Below are positions 4,007-64,000 of a DNA stretch of 64,000 nt, piece by piece. Every line of letters begins with the position of its first letter. The stretch's first letter is position 1. The DNA comes from Acidimicrobiia bacterium (GTDB lineage: Bacteria; Actinomycetota; Acidimicrobiia; Spongiisociales; UBA11373). The DNA lies in the NCBI GenBank assembly GCA_035464675.1, contig DATHSA010000081.1:32100-96099 (forward strand), read 5' to 3'. The notes beneath the pieces are model-generated. The model had not been told where the DNA came from, made no database searches, and was given only the letters and a program-made list of their open reading frames with translations. A program made the position numbers and the translations under genes.

Positions 4007-5067
4007 ACGGTCTCCAGAGGTCCGTCGGCGTCCTCCGGATCGAAGAACATCACGACCTTGCCGCACTCACCCGACGCCATGAGATCGAAGGCCGCGTCGA
4101 AGTCCTCGATCCGAAAGCGGTGGGTGACCAGCGGCGCCAGGTCCACTCCCCCGCCTCGGAGCAGTGCCTTGCCCTCGTACCAGGTCTCCCACAGCCGTCG
4201 CCCGACGATGCCGTGGACCGTGGCTCCTTTGAAGACGACGGCGTCGTCGAGGTCGAACTGGATCGGCTTCGAGGACAACCCGAGGAGCGCAGCGTGCCCG
4301 CCGGGCTTCAGCACCTCGAATCCCTCGGTGATCGCGCTCTCTGCGCCACTCATCTCGAGCAGGACGTCGACTCCCTCCCCGTCGGTCGCCTCGCGTACGG
4401 CCGCCGCGACGTCGTCGCGGCGGGGGTTGATCGTCAGAGTCGCGCCCAACGTTCGTGCCAGATCGAGTCGGTAGTCGCTGACGTCGGTGGAGATCACACT
4501 CCGCGCACCGAGTGCCCGAGCGACTGCGACCGCCATCACGCCCACCGGGCCGGCACCGGTGACCAGAACCTTCCGCCCCGCCACGGGCGGGGTCGATGCC
4601 GTATGAACGGCATTCCCGAAGTTCTCGAGGAGCGAGGCGATCGAATATTGCGTGCCCGGGGTGTTGGGCCACGCGTTGATCGCCGGGATGGTCACGTACT
4701 CGGCGAAGGCACCGTCCCGATGCACTCCCAGGATCCTCGTCTGCGGGCACAGGTGGCCCCTTCCGGTGCGGCACCACGCACAGGTCCCGTCGACGACGTG
4801 GGACTCGACCGAGACGAGGGATCCGACGGGGGGCCCGGTGACGCCCGGGCCGTGTGCCTCCACGATGCCGCACATCTCGTGGCCGATGACGAGGGGTGGC
4901 AGGACATGCTCAGCGGCCCAGGGGTCCCATGAGCGGATGTGCAGATCGGTGCCGCAGATCGACGCCGCCTTGACCTTGATGAGGACCTCCCCCTCACGCG
5001 GTTCCGGGATCGGTTGATCGGCCCACTCGAGGCCAGGCCCTGGACCTGTCTTGACGACGGCGCGCAT
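4003..5067 (-). CDS. tdh: L-threonine 3-dehydrogenase
   Basis: Zn-dependent MDR fold (CGTDLH, GHE..G, GxGxxG). Start at [10 protein letters not shown] rather than the ORF's upstream M. Operon with kbl. Confidence 0.88.
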
Positions 5068-18064: not shown

Positions 18065-18166
18065 CCCGTCTCCCGTCGCCGGTCTCCCGTCTCCCGTCAA
18101 CGGTGCCGGAGATGGCTGGCGGCGGTCCTGCGGGCGACGGGCGACGGGCGACGGGCGACCGGGCCG
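18065..18166 (-). repeat. heptad-hairpin element A (tandem CCCGTCN x4 ... GACGGGC x4 inverted arms)
   Basis: cccgtctcccgtcgccggtctcccgtctcccgtc [loop] gacgggcgacgggcgacgggcgacc. Ends 16 nt after the dksA-like stop and abuts the S2P start. Confidence 0.7.
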
Positions 18167-18181
18167 GGATCAAGTGAGGCC

Positions 18182-18529
18182 TCAGAGTGCTTTCGCGGCC
18201 TTGCAGTCCACGCAGTGGATCGAAGATGGGCGGAACTCCAGCCGGGCACTGCCGATGTCCTTCCCGCAGTTGGCGCAGGTTCCGTAGGTTCCGTCCTCGA
18301 TGCGCGCCAGCGCCTGGTCGATCTCGTCGAGGGAACGCTTGAGGCTCTCGACGAGGCCGAGAACCTCAGTGCGTTCCGCCGTTGCTGCGGCCGCATCCGC
18401 GAAGCCCTCGCCGAAGTCCAGGTCGTCACGCAGCTCACCGGACTCGCCCGCGCCGAGTTCCGAGAGCTGGTGAACGACCTGCTCCCTCTCTTCGCGAAGT
18501 CGAGTCTCGATGGCGTCGTAGGCGCCCAT
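18182..18529 (-). CDS. DksA/TraR family C4-type zinc-finger protein
   Basis: C-terminal CANCGKDIGSARLEFRPSSIHCVDC (CxxC-N17-CxxC) plus N-terminal coiled-coil region. Confidence 0.8.
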   Translation of the reverse strand: MGAYDAIETRLREEREQVVHQLSELGAGESGELRDDLDFGEGFADAAAATAERTEVLGLVESLKRSLDEIDQALARIEDGTYGTCANCGKDIGSARLEFRPSSIHCVDCKAAKAL

Positions 18530-18538
18530 GGATACCTC

Positions 18539-19428
18539 TCAGCTGCGGGGATGCGACGTCGCGTAGACCTCGAGGAGGTGACGCGGTGACACCCGGGTGT
18601 AGATCTGGGTTGTCGAGATGCTAGCGTGCCCCAGGATCTCCTGGACGGTGCGGAGATCCGCTCCCCCTTCCACCATATGGGTGGCCGCACTGTGTCGCAA
18701 CACGTGGGGTGACACGGCGTCGGGTCTCAAACCGGCCCTGGCGGCGTGTGATCGCACCAGGTTCCACACTGCCTGACGGCTCAGCCGCGTGCCCCGGAGG
18801 CTGAGGAACAGGGCCGCACCCGAACCTGCCTTTCGCACCCGGGCACGGTCGGGCAGCCAGTCCGCGATCGCGTGCCGCGCGGCCCTCCCGACCGGCACCA
18901 ACCGCTGCTTGTCGCCCTTCCCGGTGACGAGTGCCGTGCCCTCGTCCAGATCGAGATCCAGTTCGTCGAGCGCGACGGTCTCGGCCACCCGCGCGCCGGT
19001 GGCGTACATGAACTCCAGCACCGCGCGATCCCGTCTCCCCGCCGGTGTCGCGGGATCCGGGGCATCGAGAAGCCGGGTCATCTCGTCGACGGTCAGCGCC
19101 TTCGGCAGTGAGCGTGGCCGTTTCGGCGAGTCGAGGAGCAGGGTCGGGTCGGTCTCCGACATGCCTTCCGCGACGAGGAAGCGATGGAATCCCCTGATCG
19201 CAGCCACCCTGCGGGCGATCGTGGTGGGTGCCAGACCGGCCTGCTGGAGTTGGAGCACGAAGCCGGACGCCAGCTCGGCAGACGGCTCGCGTCCATCGAG
19301 GAACTCCGAATAGCGCTCGAGGTCTCTGCGGTAGGCGGCGATGGTCGCCGGGGCCAGTCCCCGCTCGGACGCCAGCGAGCCGAGGAACTCGGCGATCTGG
19401 TCGCCCTGCGACGCCCCGGTGAGGGGCA

Positions 19429-21258: not shown

Positions 21259-21280
21259 CCCGGGCCGAATTCGGCCCGGG
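21259..21280 (-). terminator. perfect palindrome cccgggccgaattcggcccggg 8 nt downstream of recN stop
   Basis: 22-nt perfect inverted repeat (9-bp GC stem around GAATTC). Intrinsic terminator-like hairpin without a U-tract. Confidence 0.55.
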
Positions 21281-21287
21281 AGCGAGG

Positions 21288-22898
21288 TCACGCGCCCTTC
21301 CGAGCCCCTGCCAGCGCGAGCAGGTCCTCGGCGTGGTCCTGGCCGCGCTCGCTGTCTTCGATGCCGCTCAGCATCCTGGCCAGCTCGGCCAGGCGGTCGG
21401 CGCCCTCGACCCGCCTCACCACCGCGCTGGTCCCCTCCCGGTCGACGACGAAGTGTGCGTCGGCGAACGCCGCGATCTGTGGGAGGTGGGTGACGACCAG
21501 CACCTGACGCCCCTCGGCGAGGCCGGCGAGCAGTTCCCCCATCGCCAGCGCGGTCGTTCCTCCCACACCGGAGTCGATCTCGTCGAAGGCGACGACATCG
21601 GCGTCGGCAACCCCGGCAGCCACCCGCACCGAGAGGACGAGCCTGCTCAACTCGCCGCCGGACGCGACCCTGGAGACCGGGCCGGGAGTCAGGCCGGCGT
21701 CGGAGGCAAAGGACAGCGAGATGGTGTCGGCGCCGCTGGGAGCGGGATCCGCATCGGTCACCTCGATCTCGAGCACGGGCGAGCGGAACCCAAGGCTTCC
21801 GAGCAACTCGAGCGCTCGCCGCTCCAGTGACACCCCCGCCCGTCTGCGGCCATCCGCCAGAAGCGCGCCCGCCTTGGTGGCGGCCTCCTCGGCGCCGGTG
21901 ATCTCGTCGTCGATCGTCTCGGCACGGGTTGCGAGCGCCGCCAGGCGGTCGGCGCGTTCGCGCGCGGAGATGCCGTAGGCGACGACCTCCTCGACGGTCG
22001 TGCCGTACTTCCGCTTCAGTCCGGTGATCACCGCGACGCGCTCCTCCATCCGGTGCAGCGCATCGGGATCGTGCTCCACTGACTCCGCGGCTCCGCGAAG
22101 TTCGAGACCGATGTCATCGAGTTCGGCCACGAGTGCCTCGATGCGGCCCGAAAGGGGCTCGAGGGCGGGATCGAGCGTTGCGGCGTCGCGCACCAGGGCG
22201 AGTGACGAGCGAAGCGAGTCTGCGGCACCGCCCTCGTCGTCGACGCGCGCGAATGCCTCGGCCAGCGACTCGGTGATCTCCGCGGAATGGCGTACCCGGG
22301 ACAGGGCGGACCTGAGCTCGTCGTCCTCTCCCGGGGTGAGGTTCGCCTCTTCGATCTCGCGGGCCTCGTGCGACGCGATCTCGAGTTCGCGCGCCAGAGC
22401 CCGGGCATCGCCGCCAAGAGAGTCGCGGTCTGCTCGGAGCCTCCTCAAACGATCCCAGGCGACCCGGTAGGCGTCCCGGGCTGCCAGACCGGCGTCGTCG
22501 AGAACGCCGTCGACGAGGCGGCGCAGGGCCGACTCGCGCCCCAGGGAGAGATGCTCGTGCTGGGCGACGATCTCCACGAGGTGCTCGAGACGATCGGAGA
22601 GAGTGCGAGCGGGGACCATTGAGCCATCGACGTAGGCCCGCGAGGTGCCTTCGGTGATCCGGCGGGCCACGACGACCTCTTCGTCGCCGATGGTGAAGCG
22701 TCCCTCGACGCGTGCTTCGGTGCCGGCGGGGCCGATGCGATCGCTGCCGGCGGTGTCACCACGGAGGAGTCGCAGCGCCCCGAGGAGAAGGGTCTTCCCC
22801 GCACCGGTCTCTCCGGTGACGGCGACCAGCCCCTGTCCCGGTTCGACGCGGGACGCGGCGATGATGCCGAGGTTCTCGACGTAGAGCTCTTCAAGCAT
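21288..22898 (-). CDS. recN: DNA repair protein RecN
   Basis: SMC-like; N-terminal Walker A (GETGAGKT), coiled coil, C-terminal signature/Walker B. Start at MLEELYVENLGII. Confidence 0.9.
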   Translation of the reverse strand: MLEELYVENLGIIAASRVEPGQGLVAVTGETGAGKTLLLGALRLLRGDTAGSDRIGPAGTEARVEGRFTIGDEEVVVARRITEGTSRAYVDGSMVPARTLSDRLEHLVEIVAQHEHLSLGRESALRRLVDGVLDDAGLAARDAYRVAWDRLRRLRADRDSLGGDARALARELEIASHEAREIEEANLTPGEDDELRSALSRVRHSAEITESLAEAFARVDDEGGAADSLRSSLALVRDAATLDPALEPLSGRIEALVAELDDIGLELRGAAESVEHDPDALHRMEERVAVITGLKRKYGTTVEEVVAYGISARERADRLAALATRAETIDDEITGAEEAATKAGALLADGRRRAGVSLERRALELLGSLGFRSPVLEIEVTDADPAPSGADTISLSFASDAGLTPGPVSRVASGGELSRLVLSVRVAAGVADADVVAFDEIDSGVGGTTALAMGELLAGLAEGRQVLVVTHLPQIAAFADAHFVVDREGTSAVVRRVEGADRLAELARMLSGIEDSERGQDHAEDLLALAGARKGA

Positions 22899-28545: not shown

Positions 28546-29015
28546 CGGTCGCTCCGGTGCATGACGATCGACCTCGCCTTGAAGCCGTTCGACTCGAAGA
28601 AGTTCTTCGACTCGCGATGTCCCGGTGAGACGTGGGCATCGAACTCCACGATGCCGCGAGAGGTCGCCTCGTCCAGGAACAGGTCGATCATCGCCTCCCC
28701 GACTCCGACGCCTCGCGCTCCCGAGAGCGTGAAGATGAGGCGCACCGCGGCGACCCTTCGCCCATCGGCGTGTGGGAGGAGATCCTCATCACGGGCCATC
28801 AGAAATCCGACCGGCACCCCGTCGATCTCACCGATGTACATCCGGGCGTCCAGGTCGTCGAGGAGGCCGGTGAACGCCTCGTCGACCGGAACCGGCAGTC
28901 CGTCGGCGACCGACCAGATCGGCTTGATCGCATCCATCTCGGCCGCCAGGGCGACATACAGCTCGGTCAGCACCGGGACGTCCTCCGGGCCTGCAGCGCG
29001 GGCAGTGACGGTCAT
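28542..29015 (-). CDS. GNAT family N-acetyltransferase
   Basis: Start at MTVTARAAGPEDV; motif A region RGVGVGEAMI. Confidence 0.72.
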   Translation of the reverse strand: MTVTARAAGPEDVPVLTELYVALAAEMDAIKPIWSVADGLPVPVDEAFTGLLDDLDARMYIGEIDGVPVGFLMARDEDLLPHADGRRVAAVRLIFTLSGARGVGVGEAMIDLFLDEATSRGIVEFDAHVSPGHRESKNFFESNGFKARSIVMHRSDR

Positions 29016-29073
29016 CGCGTTGGAGGGTATACGGGACGAGTCAAGCATCCGGTGTCGACAGTCGATATCCGGT

Positions 29074-29136
29074 GCCGTCACCCGTCACCCGGGCGCGACC
29101 GACTTCTTGACGGGCAACGGGCAACGGGTGACGGGG
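29074..29136 (-). repeat. heptad-hairpin element B
   Basis: gccgtcacccgtcacccggg [17-nt loop] gacgggcaacgggcaacgggtgacgggg; ends 6 nt after the stop of the acidic Zn-ribbon gene. Confidence 0.7.
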
Positions 29137-29143
29137 AACCGTC

Positions 29144-29584
29144 CTACGCGCAGTCCCGGCAGAGCTTCTTGCGCTTGTCCGCGAGTTGGCTGGCGCGCTT
29201 CACGAGGAAACAGGACGAACAGACGAACTCACCCTGACCGGCGGACTCGGCGGGGGTATCCAGTTCGATCGCCTCCCGCCGGAGCTTGCGAAGCTCCTCT
29301 GCCTCGTCGACAGGGAGGCTCTCGGCCTCCTCGTCCTCCGTGAGCATCTCCAGCTCTTCGGCTTCGAGCTCATCGAGAGCTTCGCTCTCTTCGTCCTCGT
29401 CCGACTCGTCGTCGCCTTCGTCCTCGTCGACATCCTCGTCGTCGAGGTCGATCTCATCGATCTCCTCGGCGTCCACATCGTCGAGGTCGATGTCGTCGAT
29501 GTCGTCGAGGTCCTCTTCGGGTTCCTCGTCCTCGGTCCACTCCTCGTCGGGCTCGAGGTCGTCGTCGTTGTCGGGAGGCGCCAT
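29144..29584 (-). CDS. highly acidic protein with C-terminal 4-Cys zinc ribbon (DUF4193-like)
   Basis: 146 aa, about 50% Asp/Glu, C-terminal FVCSSCFLVKRASQLADKRKKLCRDCA. Strong SD (GGAGAA) 4 nt upstream of ATG 29582-29584. The rest of ORF 29144..30550 is an artefact. Confidence 0.75.
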   Translation of the reverse strand: MAPPDNDDDLEPDEEWTEDEEPEEDLDDIDDIDLDDVDAEEIDEIDLDDEDVDEDEGDDESDEDEESEALDELEAEELEMLTEDEEAESLPVDEAEELRKLRREAIELDTPAESAGQGEFVCSSCFLVKRASQLADKRKKLCRDCA

Positions 29585-33921: not shown

Positions 33922-34003
33922 GGTGTGATGGTAGGTGCGGAAGAGCGTTGCCCGTTGCCCGTCACCCGGCCCTGTGGGAGGGGGCGACGGGAGCGGTCTT
34001 TGT

Positions 34004-34300
34004 TCAGCCTTCGGCGGTGAGCCGGTCGGCCCACTCGCCGGAGTCGAGGGCGCTGATGAAACGCCGGATCTCTGACTCCGTGATCGGCCCGCCGTCGTCG
34101 ACGACCTCATAGGCGACACCCGTGGCGAGCAGGATGCTGACCACGCGATGGTTTGCGGGGCGGCGCTGCGGGTCGCCGCACGTCGGGCACGAGAAGAGGT
34201 ACGAACCGGTTCCGTTCAGGGCGGTCAATTCGAGAGTGAGCTCCGCGGGGATCAGTTCCACCTCGCCGCACACGGCGCAGGTCGTCCGGATCTGGGTCAT
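34004..34300 (-). CDS. small zinc-ribbon protein (DUF3039-like)
   Basis: 98 aa, CAVCG...CPTCG (CxxC-N23-CxxC). SD GGAGACC 5 nt upstream of ATG. C-terminal region of ORF 34004..35341; the rest is an artefact. Confidence 0.6.
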   Translation of the reverse strand: MTQIRTTCAVCGEVELIPAELTLELTALNGTGSYLFSCPTCGDPQRRPANHRVVSILLATGVAYEVVDDGGPITESEIRRFISALDSGEWADRLTAEG

Positions 34301-34380
34301 CGGTGGTCTCCAATGCGATGCAACATCTCCCGTCGTATCGGAGAGGATCTGGGGCCCCTGAATGACCATTTGACACCTAG

Positions 34381-37653: not shown

Positions 37654-37680
37654 CGCGGGCGAGGGTACCCGGGAAGAGGG

Positions 37681-37756
37681 TTTCCCGTTACCCGTTACCC
37701 GTTGCCCGACCGCGTCGAACGGACACGGGAAACGGGTAACGGGAAACGGGTAACGG
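37681..37756 (-). repeat. heptad-hairpin element C
   Basis: tttcccgttacccgttacccgttgccc [loop] cgggaaacgggtaacgggaaacgggtaacgg; ends 5 nt after the stop of 37761..38120. Confidence 0.75.
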
Positions 37757-37760
37757 ATCC

Positions 37761-38120
37761 TCAGAACACGCGCATCAGTGCGCGGATCACCGCTGCGGCG
37801 AGGACCAGGGCCATGATCCCGGCGATGACCCGCATCGGGAGGTTGAGCGGGTTGGCGACGGCACCGCCTCTGACGGCCGGACTGAGCGTGTGGTCGATCT
37901 CCGAGATGGTGAGGATCTGGGCGGCGTCCTCGAGGTCCTCGACGTCGACCCAGATCTCGGTCACCGCCATCTCGCCGATCGTCATCTTGTAGGGCCCGAG
38001 GGCCTCACCGTGAAGACGGGTCGAAATGCCCGACGACTCGAGCAACGCCGCAGCGACACGCGCCGCAGCTGCGTCGCCAAAGCGAGCGAGCGAGACCATG
38101 CGGGTGGCCCGGGGTTCCAC
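37761..38120 (-). CDS. DUF2007-like small protein with C-terminal TM helix
   Basis: N-terminal 70 aa resemble the putative signal-transducing DUF2007 fold; C-terminal hydrophobic helix. Start may be M8. Confidence 0.45.
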
Positions 38121-38166
38121 GGGAGAAGGGTATCGCCGATCCCGATCAGTGAGGTCCCCTCAGAAT

Positions 38167-38280
38167 CGTCGCCCGACGCCAGTTGCCCGGCGCCCGTCGA
38201 GTCACGGCGTGCCCGCCCGGGGGTCCATGGTGGGGGTCATCCTTCGGCCCGGTGGAGTTCAGACGGGCGGCGGGCGACCG
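38167..38280 (-). repeat. heptad-hairpin element E (degenerate copy)
   Basis: gtcgcccgacgcc...gcgcccgtcgag [loop] cagacgggcggcgggcgaccg; right arm ends 1 nt before the prcA stop. Confidence 0.5.
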
Positions 38281-38281
38281 A

Positions 38282-38950
38282 TCAGGCGGCCTCGATCTCC
38301 TCGTCCGTGAGCCTGCGGAAGGCGCGTCGGCCCAGGCTGCGGTCGAGGACTGCCGCCTCCCATCCCGTGACGCCGTTCTCGGCGACGGCCGTGCAAGCGG
38401 CCTTCGCCCACCCGAGCGCATCGGCAAGAGAGCCACCCTCCGAGTACGAGGAGTCGAGATGCGCCACCAGGTCATCGGCGGAGCCGCCGATCGCAGAGAG
38501 GCGCGTCTCCTCGTAGAGGGTGCCGTCGTAGGTGACGCGGTAGATGTGGCTCTGTTCATCCGCGTCGCCGATTTCGACGACCATCACCTCCACCTCGAAG
38601 GGCTTCACATCCTGCGTGAAGACGTGTCCGAGGGTCTGGGCATAGGCATTCGCGAGGCTCTTGGCCGTGACATCGTCGCGGGAATACGCGTACCCGGTCA
38701 GGTCGGCGCGGCGGATGCCGCCGACTCTGAGCTGTTCGAACTCCGTGTACTTCCCGACGCCGGCAAACGCGATGTGGTCGTAGATCTCCGAGATCTTCTG
38801 GAGGGTCCCGCTGGGGTTCTCGCCGAGCAACACGACCCCGTCGGCGAACTCCACGGCAACGATCGACTTGCCTCGGGCGATCCCCTTCCGCGCGTACTCT
38901 GCCCGGTCCTTCATCAGCTGCTCGGGCGGTACATAGAACGGGATGGTCAC
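38282..38950 (-). CDS. prcA: proteasome subunit alpha
   Basis: Alpha-subunit N-terminus (TIPFYVPPEQLMKDRAEYARKGIARGKS) and 20S fold. Confidence 0.9.
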   Translation of the reverse strand: MTIPFYVPPEQLMKDRAEYARKGIARGKSIVAVEFADGVVLLGENPSGTLQKISEIYDHIAFAGVGKYTEFEQLRVGGIRRADLTGYAYSRDDVTAKSLANAYAQTLGHVFTQDVKPFEVEVMVVEIGDADEQSHIYRVTYDGTLYEETRLSAIGGSADDLVAHLDSSYSEGGSLADALGWAKAACTAVAENGVTGWEAAVLDRSLGRRAFRRLTDEEIEAA

Positions 38951-43589: not shown

Positions 43590-43675
43590 TTCCGTCGCCA
43601 GATACCCGACTCCGTCCGATGGTCGGGTCCGGTCGACGAGTGACGGGAGACCCGCAACGGGTTGGGGAGCAGTGA

Positions 43676-44897: not shown

Positions 44898-45024
44898 TCG
44901 TCGCCCGTCGCCCGTCACCCGACGCCCGAAACTCCGACTGATGGGTGGGGGAACCCCCGAGAGCAGGTCGACGCGGTCGAAACGGAGCCGAGACGGGAGA
45001 CGGGCGACCGGAGTCGGGTGACCC
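44898..45024 (-). repeat. heptad-hairpin element D (long-range arms with nested GGGGGAACCCCC hairpin)
   Basis: gtcgcccgtcgcccgtcacccgac [60-nt loop containing tgggggaacccccga] gagacgggagacgggcgacc...gtcgggtgaccc; ends 2 nt before the stop of 45026..45220. Confidence 0.65.
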
Positions 45025-45025
45025 T

Positions 45026-45220
45026 CTACGTCCGGTAGACCTCGATGCGGGCCCCACCCTTCTTGCCCTTGCGGCGCCCGATCAGGTAGACGACGAACAA
45101 CACCACCACCACTCCGACTGCCGCAAGGACCCCGGCATTGCGGGCACCCTGGGTCGTCTCGTCGATGGCCCCCTGGATCTCACGCAGCTTGGCTTCGAGA
45201 TCGGCTTTCTGAACACTCAT
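45026..45220 (-). CDS. small membrane protein (DUF3618-like: coiled coil plus C-terminal TM)
   Basis: Start at M6 (MSVQKADLEAKLREIQ...), which overlaps the stop of the upstream gene (ATGA). Single TM helix VLAAVGVVVVLFVVYLI followed by a basic tail. Confidence 0.5.
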   Translation of the reverse strand: MSVQKADLEAKLREIQGAIDETTQGARNAGVLAAVGVVVVLFVVYLIGRRKGKKGGARIEVYRT

Positions 45221-56734: not shown

Positions 56735-56750
56735 ATCAGCCCATCCCATC

Positions 56751-56777
56751 GAGCCGCCCCGGACTCCGGGGCGGCTC
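56751..56777. terminator. bidirectional GC hairpin gagccgccccgg-act-ccggggcggctc between convergent genes
   Basis: 12-bp perfect stem, 3-nt loop; 17 nt after the PRC-barrel stop and 13 nt after the DEAD-box helicase stop. Confidence 0.6.
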
Positions 56778-56789
56778 GGCGCGGCAGAT

Positions 56790-62187: not shown

Positions 62188-63483
62188 ATGGCCTCAGACG
62201 ACCTCGCTCCCCAGATCAACCTCAATCTCAACGTCCGGGGCCTCGGGCACTCGGCGACGCTCGCCATCAACGAGAAGAGCAAACGGCTGCAATCGGAGGG
62301 ACGGCACGTCTATCGGCTCGGCCTGGGCCAGTCTCCCTTCCCGGTACCCCGGCCCGTGGTCGACGAGCTCCGCGCCAACGCACACCAGAAGGACTACCTC
62401 GACGTCGTCGGTCTACCCGTGCTCCGGGATGCGGTGGCGAACTACTACCTCCGCCGGTACGGGGTCTCGCGCACTGCCGACGAGGTGCTCATCGGGCCAG
62501 GATCCAAGGAACTCATGTTTCTCGTCCAGCTCGTCTACTACGGCGAGCTGGTGATCCCGACGCCGAGCTGGGTCTCGTACGCGCCACAGGCGCACATCAT
62601 CGGACGCAAGGTGCACTGGGTGCCGACGACCGTCGAACACGGCTGGCCCCTGCGGCCGGAGGAACTGGACGCCGTGTGCCGGGAGGACCCCTCGCGCCCG
62701 CGACTCGTCATCCTCAACTACCCGTCGAATCCCACCGGACAGACCTACGACATCGACGCCCTCCAGAAGCTCGCCGAAGTCGCACGCCGCTATCGAGTGA
62801 TCCTTCTCTCCGACGAGATCTACGGCGAACTGGATCATCAGGGGCGACACGCCTCGATCGCGACCTTCTATCCCGAGGGCACCATCATCAGTGGCGGTCT
62901 GAGCAAATGGTGCGGCGCAGGGGGATGGCGCCTCGGGACCTTCACGTTCCCCTCAGAGCTCACCTGGCTCCGCGACGCGGTCGCGGCCGTCGCCAGTGAG
63001 ACCTACACGTCCACGAGTGCGCCGATCCAGTTCGCAGCGGTCAAGGCCTTCGACGGTGGAAATGAACTCGAGGGGTACCTGGTCAACGCGCGTCGCATCC
63101 TGCGGGCGCTGGGTGTTGCCTTCGCCGAGCGGCTTCGCTCGGCCGGCGTGTTCGTTCCCGACCCGCAGGGGGCGTTCTACCTCTTCCCCGACTTCTCCGC
63201 GCTGGGCGCGGGCCTTGCCGAACGGGGGGTGCAAACCTCCACCGATCTCTGCGAGCGACTGCTGGGCGACACGGGCGTGGCTCTGCTGCCGGGATCGGCG
63301 TTCGGGCGAAGCCCCCATGAGTTGACCGCGAGGCTCGCCTATGTCGACTTCGACGGTGCCCAGGCGCTGGCTGCTGCCGAGGCCATTCCGCGCGACCAGG
63401 AGCTGGACGCGGCCTTCCTCGACCAGTACTGCGCCAACACGATTCGTGCGGCGGAGGTCATCGCGGATTGGATCGCAGACTGA
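62188..63483 (+). CDS. pyridoxal phosphate-dependent aminotransferase (class I/II)
   Basis: Aspartate-aminotransferase-like fold; SKWCGAGGWRLG PLP-lysine region; start at MASDDLAPQ (internal M of ORF 62143..). Confidence 0.8.
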   Translation: MASDDLAPQINLNLNVRGLGHSATLAINEKSKRLQSEGRHVYRLGLGQSPFPVPRPVVDELRANAHQKDYLDVVGLPVLRDAVANYYLRRYGVSRTADEVLIGPGSKELMFLVQLVYYGELVIPTPSWVSYAPQAHIIGRKVHWVPTTVEHGWPLRPEELDAVCREDPSRPRLVILNYPSNPTGQTYDIDALQKLAEVARRYRVILLSDEIYGELDHQGRHASIATFYPEGTIISGGLSKWCGAGGWRLGTFTFPSELTWLRDAVAAVASETYTSTSAPIQFAAVKAFDGGNELEGYLVNARRILRALGVAFAERLRSAGVFVPDPQGAFYLFPDFSALGAGLAERGVQTSTDLCERLLGDTGVALLPGSAFGRSPHELTARLAYVDFDGAQALAAAEAIPRDQELDAAFLDQYCANTIRAAEVIADWIAD

Positions 63484-63600
63484 GGGTCGAGTCGCGGGTC
63501 CGAGTCTCGCCGATGTGAGAAAGCCGTCGGTGTGTGGAACCTCAGGTGGCGCCTCGGCCCGTGGGGGCTGCGTCTATGGGACCCGACACCACGGCCGGCC

Positions 63601-63831
63601 TCAGCGGCCTGGCATGTGGCGCCAGATGATTCGGCCCCGCGACGGATCGTAGAGCGACACCTCGAGATCGACCTCGTCGCCAGGAAGAATGCGGATCTTG
63701 CGACCCCGTCGCATCCGTCCCGCAGCCCGAGCGATGACGTCGATGCCCTGCTCGGTCTCCACCAGGAACTTCGCATCCCGTAGCACGGTCTTCACCGTGC
63801 CGCGGGTGCGGTAGGTCTGTTCTTCAGTCAC
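63601..63831 (-). CDS. infA: translation initiation factor IF-1 family (S1-like OB fold)
   Basis: 76 aa aligning with IF-1 (GTVKTVLRDAKFLVETEQG...RKIRILPGDEVDLEVSLYDPSRGRIIWR). GTG start; atypical N-terminus and no adjacent rpmJ/rpsM. Confidence 0.72.
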   Translation of the reverse strand: MTEEQTYRTRGTVKTVLRDAKFLVETEQGIDVIARAAGRMRRGRKIRILPGDEVDLEVSLYDPSRGRIIWRHMPGR

Positions 63832-63837
63832 TTCCGG

Positions 63838-63915
63838 CTAGGAACGGGGCGCGAAGAGGCGCTGTAGATCGTCCGAGTCGAAGCTGAAGGGAAGATTCCC
63901 CACGTAGATGTTCAC
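63838..63915 (-). CDS. candidate 25-aa upstream ORF with RRM RNP-2-like N-terminus
   Basis: VNIYVGNLPFSFDSDDLQRLFAPRS; GAAAGG SD 7 nt upstream of GTG; stops 6 nt before the IF-1-like gene start. Confidence 0.25.
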   Translation of the reverse strand: MNIYVGNLPFSFDSDDLQRLFAPRS

Positions 63916-64000
63916 TGACTGCCTTTCGATTGTCGTCTCGACACCGTGACCACGTAGGAGGAACCGGATCACGGTCGATGCCGAAAGGCCGGGAAGCGTC

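Follow-up and report, generated by a model that had tools for sequence, protein, structure and literature searches.

Rapidly remodelled inverted heptad arrays follow stop codons in the Pup-proteasome locus of an uncultured Acidimicrobiia bacterium

A stretch of 64,000 nucleotides from an uncultured Acidimicrobiia bacterium (assembly GCA_035464675.1, contig DATHSA010000081.1, positions 32,100 to 96,099 of the forward strand; hereafter the window) comprises a Pup-proteasome locus in which several genes are followed, directly after the stop codon, by inverted repeats built of tandem 7-nt units. The observation, first made for five such elements in a preliminary description of the sequence, is real and highly non-random. 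The elements are probably hairpin-forming heptanucleotide microsatellites, each consisting of an inverted pair of tandem heptads (GT[C/T]NCCC in the 5' arm, GGGN[G/A]AC in the 3' arm) with typically four units per arm. The most fitting interpretation makes them fast-evolving relatives of the Xanthomonas heptamer repeats and not conserved terminators. Construction and remodelling proceed in steps of 7 nt; within a few per cent of protein divergence, elements appear, disappear, change in size or give way to arrays of other heptads, and period 7 is the only period that has expanded in this clade.

The pattern CCCGTNNCCCGT was found 15 times in the 64-kb window, compared with 0.52 ± 0.70 times in dinucleotide-preserving shuffles, none of 100 of which reached 15. 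All 15 matches sit either in the five elements described before (A to E), whose shared architecture and inverted arms were upheld, or in an additional element, F (33951-33991), which was revealed by the window scan and had been missed. In every element CCCG recurs with period 7 on the left side and CGGG does so on the right, and the inverted arms of elements A to F measure 10-32 nt, with 83-90 % complementarity and a separation of 14-72 nt. The tandem repeat (GACGGGC)x4 previously reported for element A is present in the sequence. The six elements, each of which follows a minus-strand stop codon, and one probable decayed element are as follows.

Element A, 18065-18166, after a minus-strand gene: inverted arms 18065-18096 and 18131-18162, 32 nt, 84 % complementary, separated by 34 nt; the C-rich arm (18065-18098) has five units of the GTCTCCC type, one of them degenerate, and the G-rich arm (18131-18162) is (GGGCGAC)x4; it lies between the stop of a dksA/TraR-like gene (18182-18184) and the start of an M50 peptidase gene (18063).
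Element B, 29074-29136, after a minus-strand gene: inverted arms 29075-29091 and 29118-29134; the C-rich arm (29075-29091) has 2-3 units and the G-rich arm (29110-29136) four; it begins about 5 nt past the stop of a DUF4193 gene (29144-29146).
Element C, 37680-37756, after a minus-strand gene: inverted arms 37680-37708 and 37726-37754, 29 nt, 90 % complementary; it reads (GTTNCCC)x4, a 17-nt loop and (GGGNAAC)x4, and lies 4 nt past the stop of a DUF2007 gene (37761-37763) and 26 nt short of the pafA start (37653).
Element D, 38167-38280, after a minus-strand gene: inverted arms 38182-38198 and 38262-38278, which are degenerate (CCCG/CGGG at period 7, two clean units each) and 63 nt apart; it begins 2 nt past the prcA stop (38282-38284).
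Element E, 44898-45024, after a minus-strand gene: inverted arms 44899-44921 and 44994-45016; the C-rich arm (44904-44928) has four units and the G-rich arm (44992-45022) 3-4, with 72 nt between the arms; it begins 1 nt past the stop of a 64-aa open reading frame (ORF; 45026-45028).
Element F, 33951-33996, after a minus-strand gene: inverted arms 33958-33967 and 33982-33991; it reads CCCGTTG CCCGTCA CCCGG ... GGGCGACGGG and is flanked by the stop of a 98-aa ORF (34004-34006) and by the tatA start (33921).
Probable decayed element, 43590-43675, in the convergent spacer between the ferredoxin gene and trmI: scattered CCG/ACGGG at period 7.

The last of these had been put forward as a possible degenerate sixth copy. 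An inverted repeat was looked for there in the window and none was found, and the fold had a z score of -0.9. It is nevertheless plausibly a decayed copy, since the orthologous spacer of a close relative (L200, introduced below) holds a full 4+5-unit CCCGTCN element (z = -5.9).

The minus-strand gene order of the locus is mpa, dop, pup, prcB, prcA, DUF2007, pafA, pafB, pafC, the 98-aa ORF, tatA, tatC and helY. Real gene calls confirmed the placement described earlier, as all six elements start 1-16 nt past a minus-strand stop codon (of the dksA/TraR-like, DUF4193, DUF2007 and prcA genes and of the 64-aa and 98-aa ORFs) and end 0-168 nt before the next start. The stated lack of a U-tract likewise held, with no T-run after any of the elements, and a consensus scan of 40 kb returned no hairpin-plus-U-tract (canonical terminator-like) site at any gene end. 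With the U-tract missing and loops of 14-72 nt, the elements do not conform to canonical L-shaped intrinsic terminators. On the downstream side, the hexamers TACCCT, TACCAT and TACCCT lie 6-8 nt ahead of the pafA, tatA and GNAT starts (37654-37680, 33922-33945 and 29009-29035) and are kept in relatives as TACCCT/TACGCT/TACCAT, which suggests that they may be the -10 boxes of leaderless promoters. As these hexamers precede the start codons, the elements occupy the stretch from a stop codon to the promoter-like sequence of the following gene. Translational coupling or sequestration of the ribosome-binding site was considered as a general mechanism and rejected, given that only element A abuts the next start and the other five end 26-168 nt before it.

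Direct evidence for change by whole units was obtained from contig k141_1081946 (ENA ERZ27272641), the one public contig encoding the proteins of the window, with which 62.6 kb of the window could be aligned at 99.95 % identity. Outside a patch at recN and the contig end, the two sequences differ by 20 scattered single-nucleotide polymorphisms (SNPs), a 1-nt indel in a C-run and one 7-nt insertion. This insertion, ACGGGTG at 29123 in k141_1081946, is exactly one extra heptad in the G-rich arm of element B (five units versus four) and is the sole multi-base indel inside an element. In a second pair of strains, L202 and L204, indels of 28 nt (4 x 7) and 7 nt were found within the heptad arrays between the 98-aa ORF (orf98) and tatA. 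Because whole-unit indels separate near-identical strains, the elements are remodelled in 7-nt steps, and the earlier notion of slippable heptads was well founded.

The same alignment covers a site at which one allele carries an array and the other does not. At the 3' end of recN (21259-21280, 7 nt past the recN stop at 21288-21290) the window allele is a plain perfect palindrome, CCCGGGCCGAATTCGGCCCGGG, and the k141_1081946 allele is 51 nt longer, containing (GTCGCCC)x3 GTCTCC and a small hairpin. A patch of some 60-110 nt, covering the last 10 or so recN codons and the spacer, was replaced here (21259-21324), with about 17 clustered substitutions; it resembles a segment imported by recombination or a 3' end that is hypervariable. 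At the other end of the alignment, positions 62608-64000 of the window run 1.4 kb past the end of k141_1081946, so that the window must stem from a different assembly of a near-identical strain, and five SNPs clustered at 62349-62370, close to that end, are probably an assembly-end artefact.

Turnover at orthologous sites was followed in contigs from relatives with 98 % (L199, L200), 96 % (L201) and 95 % (L202-L204) PafA identity, L203 being from GCA_030688105.1, the same metagenome-assembled genome (MAG) as L004, L037 and L043. Four spacers compare as follows.

DUF2007-pafA spacer: 4+4 units in the window; 2+1 in L199/L200; none in L201; gene inverted and not comparable in L202-L204.
pafA-pafB spacer: no element in the window or in L199/L200; a large CCCGTTN hairpin in L201; a TCAAGAG-unit hairpin in L202-L204.
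orf98-tatA spacer: a small element in the window; 4+4 units in L199/L200; an unrelated palindrome in L201; long CCCGCTT/CGGGTAA arrays in L202-L204.
trmI-ferredoxin spacer: degenerate in the window; a full 4+5 element in L200; (TAGTCAG)x3 in L201; no data for L202-L204.

At the site of element D, L199 holds two C units only and L201-L204 have no element, while element E is absent from the orthologous place in L199-L201. Across these relatives a given spacer may thus contain the element, a reduced version, no element or an array of other heptads (TCAAGAG, GTCTCCA, TAGTCAG, GGTTGCC, CCCGCTT); the fold z score at one spacer swings from about -6 to about 0, and some spacers without an element are only 15 nt long. 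The lack of a hairpin at orthologous positions, which the preliminary description had named as evidence against its own reading, was therefore seen at several sites in relatives of 95-98 % PafA identity. Other-heptad versions of the same architecture also occur occasionally in more distant relatives, with inverted arrays after pafA of GATNGCA (L115, 1949-2036) and TACGTNN (L121, 11384-11615) units, and (GCTATCC)x6 together with a long CTGNNGG-type array upstream of pafA (L124, 9781-10000). In L201, (TAGTCAG)x3 runs from the trmI stop codon itself and places stop codons in all three frames, and (GTCTCCA)x3 follows DUF4193 (4230-4287 and 18661-18715).

Arrays of at least four units were counted in 121 kb (the window with L199, L201 and L202), of which eight had period 7, one had period 6 and none had any other period from 4 to 12. 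Only two period-7 arrays of this length were present in 787 kb around the PafA genes of more distant relatives (72-90 % identity). The proposal of a lineage-specific family therefore stands for dense period-7 arrays, which were confined to the clade, but not for CCCGT-type heptad hairpins as such, which were also recovered from other phyla. A scan of one genome per species with the C-first pattern CCCGTNNCCCGT N10-40 ACGGGNNACGGG gave at least 113 stretches; among the matches listed, at least 39 elements had three or more units on both arms, and the carriers were Acidobacteriota, Acidimicrobiia, other Actinomycetota, Anaeromyxobacter (Myxococcota), Chloroflexota, Endozoicomonas and others, the listed Streptomyces matches being mostly plain 2+2 perfect hairpins. 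For 42 elements among the matches listed, the C-rich arm had three units in 5, four in 27, five in 8 and six in 2, counts for which only arrays of at least three perfect units were kept. The gene context in other genomes was co-directional in 22 cases, convergent in 8 and divergent in 3, according to a crude gene finder based on ORFs and third-position GC content (GC3), which mislabels some window sites and was used only for rough context counts outside the window. Rfam at the gathering score matched only a tRNA in the window and nothing at 18 heptad-hairpin loci from other phyla, and at E<=1 only sub-threshold generic microRNA-hairpin matches were seen, on both strands.

Arm polarity was uniform. 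The C-rich arm was 5' in 10 elements at about 8 independent sites and no element was G-first, and among the few matches from scans of viral contigs the two multi-heptad ones were both C-first. The sole G-first inverted heptad pair seen, (CCGGGGA)x4 ... (TCCCCGG)-type, is in an Acidobacteriota MAG (L042, 7425-7511), and opposite polarity therefore exists for another heptad.

The elements are likely to be products of slippage that arose from ordinary hairpins at gene 3' ends, in the dispensable stretch from a stop codon to the next promoter, and to have at most a generic effect of the kind associated with repetitive extragenic palindromic (REP) sequences. Arrays would grow by replication slippage from GC-rich, U-tract-less 3' hairpins such as those at 21259-21280 and 56750-56778, and would be tolerated because stop-to-promoter DNA can be dispensed with. 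Once transcribed, such an array would give the upstream cistron, at its very 3' end, a stem of 25-35 bp interrupted by a mismatch roughly every 7 bp. Its expected effect, by analogy with REPs, would be that of a barrier to 3' exonucleases or a pause for RNA polymerase, modestly favouring the upstream cistron. A selected, site-specific terminator or attenuator would not be expected, since no single site depends on having its element. The second of these simple hairpins (56735-56789) has the perfect form CGAGCCGCCCCGG-ACTC-CGGGGCGGCTCG, lacks a U-tract and lies between the convergent genes of a PRC-domain protein and a DEAD-box helicase, with z scores of -4.7 and -3.3 on the two strands and the C-rich arm first.

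The preliminary description had offered, among other possibilities, a family of selected factor-independent 'I-shaped' terminators or attenuators, in which a long GC-rich hairpin would end the transcription unit, perhaps with NusG or Rho, and heptads would be the means by which the stem was lengthened. Judged from the sequence evidence, this is unlikely. The position of every element between a stop codon and a promoter-like hexamer would suit a terminator, as would the absence of canonical hairpin-plus-U-tract sites from gene ends, the plain U-tract-less hairpin between convergent genes at 56735-56789 and the hairpin that follows the stop in both recN alleles. Folding against shuffled controls, which had been proposed as a test, gave a divided result. 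As minus-strand RNA, elements A, B and C folded at -68.8, -43.6 and -51.5 kcal/mol (z = -4.3, -5.5 and -5.9) and were thus far more stable than shuffled sequence, element F was marginal (z = -2.0), and elements D and E, because of their loops of 63-72 nt, folded no better than shuffles (z = -0.8 and -0.7). The U-tract is missing from all elements, and mycobacterial RNA polymerase is reported to need one in vitro (Czyz et al. 2014). Most other 3' spacers in the window are without a significant hairpin, and hairpins are lost at the same spacers in the 95-98 % relatives.

Selection acting on the RNA was further addressed with 25 elements to which an upstream gene could be assigned, the expectation being a better fold and more G-U pairs on the sense strand. 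No asymmetry between sense and antisense folding was observed in this set (mean difference +0.65 kcal/mol, 10 versus 15 elements, p = 0.31), nor any excess of sense G-U pairs (43 versus 48), and selection at the RNA level was rejected for these elements on the basis of the similar energies and G-U counts. In the portion of the Xcc table of Rehm et al. (2015, PMC4692102) considered here, analogous Xanthomonas pairs lie between groES and groEL, atpA and atpG, and atpD and atpC, and strong termination at those places is therefore unlikely. With no U-tract, equal folds on both strands, hairpins lost at orthologous spacers and analogues inside groESL and atp clusters, the terminator or attenuator interpretation was left unsupported.

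The claim that the variable heptad positions co-vary with the opposite arm was assessed with 171 C-arm units from 41 multi-heptad elements of the window and other genomes. Watson-Crick pairs were formed at positions 1-5 of CCCGTNN in 79-91 % of units and at position 6 in 64 %, in keeping with the claim, but position 7, the most variable, was Watson-Crick paired in only 40 %, formed G-U pairs in 12 % and was unpaired in 49 %. The arms of element A (GTCTCCC versus GTCGCCC) accordingly have a mismatch every 7 bp, as does the stem of element C. With about half of the units unpaired at position 7, the variable position is not preserved by pairing; the heptad retains six positions by sequence and leaves one free.

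Several of these findings weigh against this reading, in that neutral slippage alone would not predict them. Nearly all sites in this genome use one heptad type, and distant phyla again show the CCCGT core, with 3-7 units in each arm. Polarity is fixed with the C-rich arm always 5' (10 to 0, and the two viral-contig matches too), the arms keep similar unit numbers with a C-arm mode of four, and six positions are kept with position 7 free, although pairing is thereby broken. Both recN alleles, moreover, retain some hairpin right after the stop codon, which hints at selection for a 3' hairpin as such. An alternative that would accommodate most of this, and which we regard as distinctly improbable, is that period-7 inverted arrays are written or maintained by a specific process or factor and not by passive slippage. 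It would fit the fixed polarity within each family (C-first here, G-first in Xanthomonas), the six fixed positions and one free, the mode of four, the equal arms, the dominance of one heptad type per genome and the recurrence of CCCGT across phyla. Were it true, the ends of transcription units would carry, in the heptad hairpins, a functional module common to several phyla.

A role as protein-binding arrays, in which a DNA- or RNA-binding factor would read six fixed bases and one free base per unit and the inverted arrays would serve as paired platforms, appears very doubtful. The conservation of six of the seven positions, with the seventh often unpaired, the fixed polarity, the mode of four units and the presence of the CCCGT core in several phyla could all be understood in this way, and cold-shock proteins are known to bind in a heptamer register (discussed in PMC4679880). 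However, sister strains display the same architecture and spacers with unrelated heptads (TCAAGAG, TAGTCAG, GTCTCCA, GGTTGCC), the sites are not conserved, and no candidate gene was linked to the elements in about 72 kb.

Regulation of neighbouring genes by a G-quadruplex (G4) on the G-rich arm, (G3N4)x4, and an i-motif on the C-rich arm, in DNA or RNA, as proposed for GGGNATC, is highly unlikely. The arms of elements A, B and C have exactly the form G3-N4-G3-N4-G3-N4-G3, four is the commonest unit number, G arms taken alone are predicted to fold as G4 at -9 to -14 kcal/mol, and Xanthomonas and Nostoc units form G4 and i-motif structures in vitro (PMC4692102). With both arms on one strand, however, the predicted hairpin (-44 to -69 kcal/mol) prevailed in 11 of 12 folds even when G4 was allowed; elements D, E and F are without four clean G-tracts, and relatives use heptads devoid of G-tracts in the same architecture. 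G4 was therefore rejected as the main structure, the hairpin being thermodynamically dominant. Avoidance of R-loops or G4 as the cause of C-first polarity was likewise undermined, as the Xanthomonas pairs in the part of PMC4692102 considered here are G-first.

A mobile family resembling REPs with their associated tyrosine transposase (RAYT) or transposable elements of the miniature inverted-repeat type (MITEs), inserting after genes, which had also been suggested, is extremely improbable: the elements are palindromes scattered through intergenic DNA, differ in presence between close strains at recN and several spacers, and resemble Xanthomonas heptad arrays with a REP-like distribution (PMC4692102), but the copies share only a 7-nt unit in differing numbers and no full-length consensus, have no terminal inverted repeats beyond the arrays themselves, and at recN present a replaced patch with clustered substitutions in place of a clean insertion with target-site duplication and matching filled and empty sites. 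No Y1-transposase domain was among the Pfam matches recorded for about 72 kb of called genes, where no RAYT was seen either, and Rehm et al. saw no link between heptamers and mobile elements (PMC4692102).

Three further observations were made in the locus. The spacer from pafC to the 98-aa ORF (34301-34380; 80-83 nt) is near-invariant in the 95-98 % relatives (ctaggcgNcaaatggtcattcaggggcc...) in contrast to all neighbouring spacers, never holds an array, and by its conservation may be a regulatory region or a 5' untranslated region. The DUF2007 gene (37761-38099, flanks 37680-38280) shares its direction with prcA and pafA in the window and L199-L201 but is turned round in L202-L204 and in all more distant relatives in which it lies between prcA and pafA, and a single-gene inversion of about 0.5 kb therefore arose inside the clade. 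Inversion by way of elements C and D was considered and rejected, since L201 has the window orientation without a flanking array, so that arrays are not required. Finally, L199 (4191-6434) and L200 (4091-6434), although 99.8 % identical, show a difference of about 103 nt close to the heptad element of the trmI-ferredoxin spacer; mpa is called as a 747-aa product in L199, where the ferredoxin gene was not called, whereas L200 has the ferredoxin gene and a 571-aa Mpa.

The elements, best interpreted as slippage-driven, palindromic microsatellites, make the Acidimicrobiia a third, unrelated lineage with an inverted heptad architecture, of opposite arm polarity, and the CCCGT-type heptad hairpin is scattered over several phyla. 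Strain-level comparisons show whole-unit changes and, over a few per cent divergence, turnover at orthologous sites. For annotation, heptad hairpins should not be labelled as terminators or as conserved RNA motifs. The role of inverted heptads near stop codons has also become more testable, as cultured carriers are available in Anaeromyxobacter oryzisoli SG63, Endozoicomonas sp. YOMI1 and Xanthomonas.

Among known systems, the putative 'I-shaped' terminators of high-GC Actinobacteria are a prediction class without heptad periodicity, and their termination activity is disputed. Elements A, B, C and F would fit this class in position and structure, as GC-rich hairpins placed directly after a stop codon without a U-tract, but loops of 14-72 nt, periodic mismatches and the lack of conservation at orthologous sites set the elements apart. 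REPs and bacterial interspersed mosaic elements (BIMEs) of enterobacteria and pseudomonads offer a functional analogy through their roles as 3' hairpins without a U-tract. PMC3333891 describes them as imperfect palindromes spread through intergenic DNA, frequently at the 3' ends of genes or between cistrons. REPs, however, have a conserved sequence of 20-40 nt with a 5' GT[AG]G head and a RAYT transposase, whereas the window elements have no GTAG head and their copies share only the heptad, in variable number.

Direct heptamer arrays have been reported from several lineages. TAACTGA repeats of marine Beggiatoaceae, cyanobacteria and Bacteroidetes are intergenic and, in Beggiatoaceae, mostly upstream of start codons (PMC4679880), and GGGACCG x4 elements of Geobacter metallireducens also occur inside genes (PMC2700814). 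Like the present elements, these are lineage-restricted intergenic heptamers of 2-6 (or four) units, and the (TAGTCAG)x3 array of L201 even starts at a stop codon, but they are direct repeats and not inverted pairs after stop codons. Mrazek et al. (2007), cited in both PMC4679880 and PMC4692102, reported that prokaryotes have an over-representation of long heptanucleotide simple sequence repeats, and for the tandem heptanucleotides known as STRRs in Calothrix and Nostoc, which are non-coding and lineage specific, an origin by slippage has been proposed (as cited in the same two papers). The preference for period 7, the non-coding location and the lineage specificity are shared with the elements described here; as far as these citing accounts go, both reports concern direct arrays, of which the inverted-pair hairpin and the position after a stop codon are not defining features.

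The closest published kind are the GGGNATC heptamers of Xanthomonas (GGGAATC) and the GGGGA(C/T)T heptamers of Nostoc (Rehm et al. 2015, PMC4692102). These are 89-93 % intergenic, with a mode of four units, a mean distance of 28 nt to the 5' ORF (a few to about 30 nt in typical cases) and of 160 nt to the next, and a location mostly between co-directional ORFs, with under-representation between divergent genes. Each Xanthomonas genome has 70-75 cases of inverted pairing able to form stem-loops; the repeats vary in length between species, are transcribed and, although they form G4 and i-motif in vitro, were assigned no function by Rehm et al. (PMC4692102). The unit in the window is different (GGGN[G/A]AC, or CCCGT[T/C/G]N on the other strand), as are the Acidimicrobiia host, the use of heptads without G-tracts in the same architecture by sister strains, and the polarity, with the C-rich arm 5' here and the G-rich arm 5' in 7 of 7 Xcc pairs in the part of the table considered. 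What is shared is a G3 tract followed by 4 nt at period 7 (the G-rich arms of A, B and C being CGGG at period 7 with four units each), an intergenic position near the 5' ORF, mostly between co-directional genes and 1-16 nt past the stop for the six window elements, the four-unit mode, the inverted pairs, and a unit number that varies between related genomes, as seen in the indel of element B, the L202/L204 indels and the orthologous spacers.

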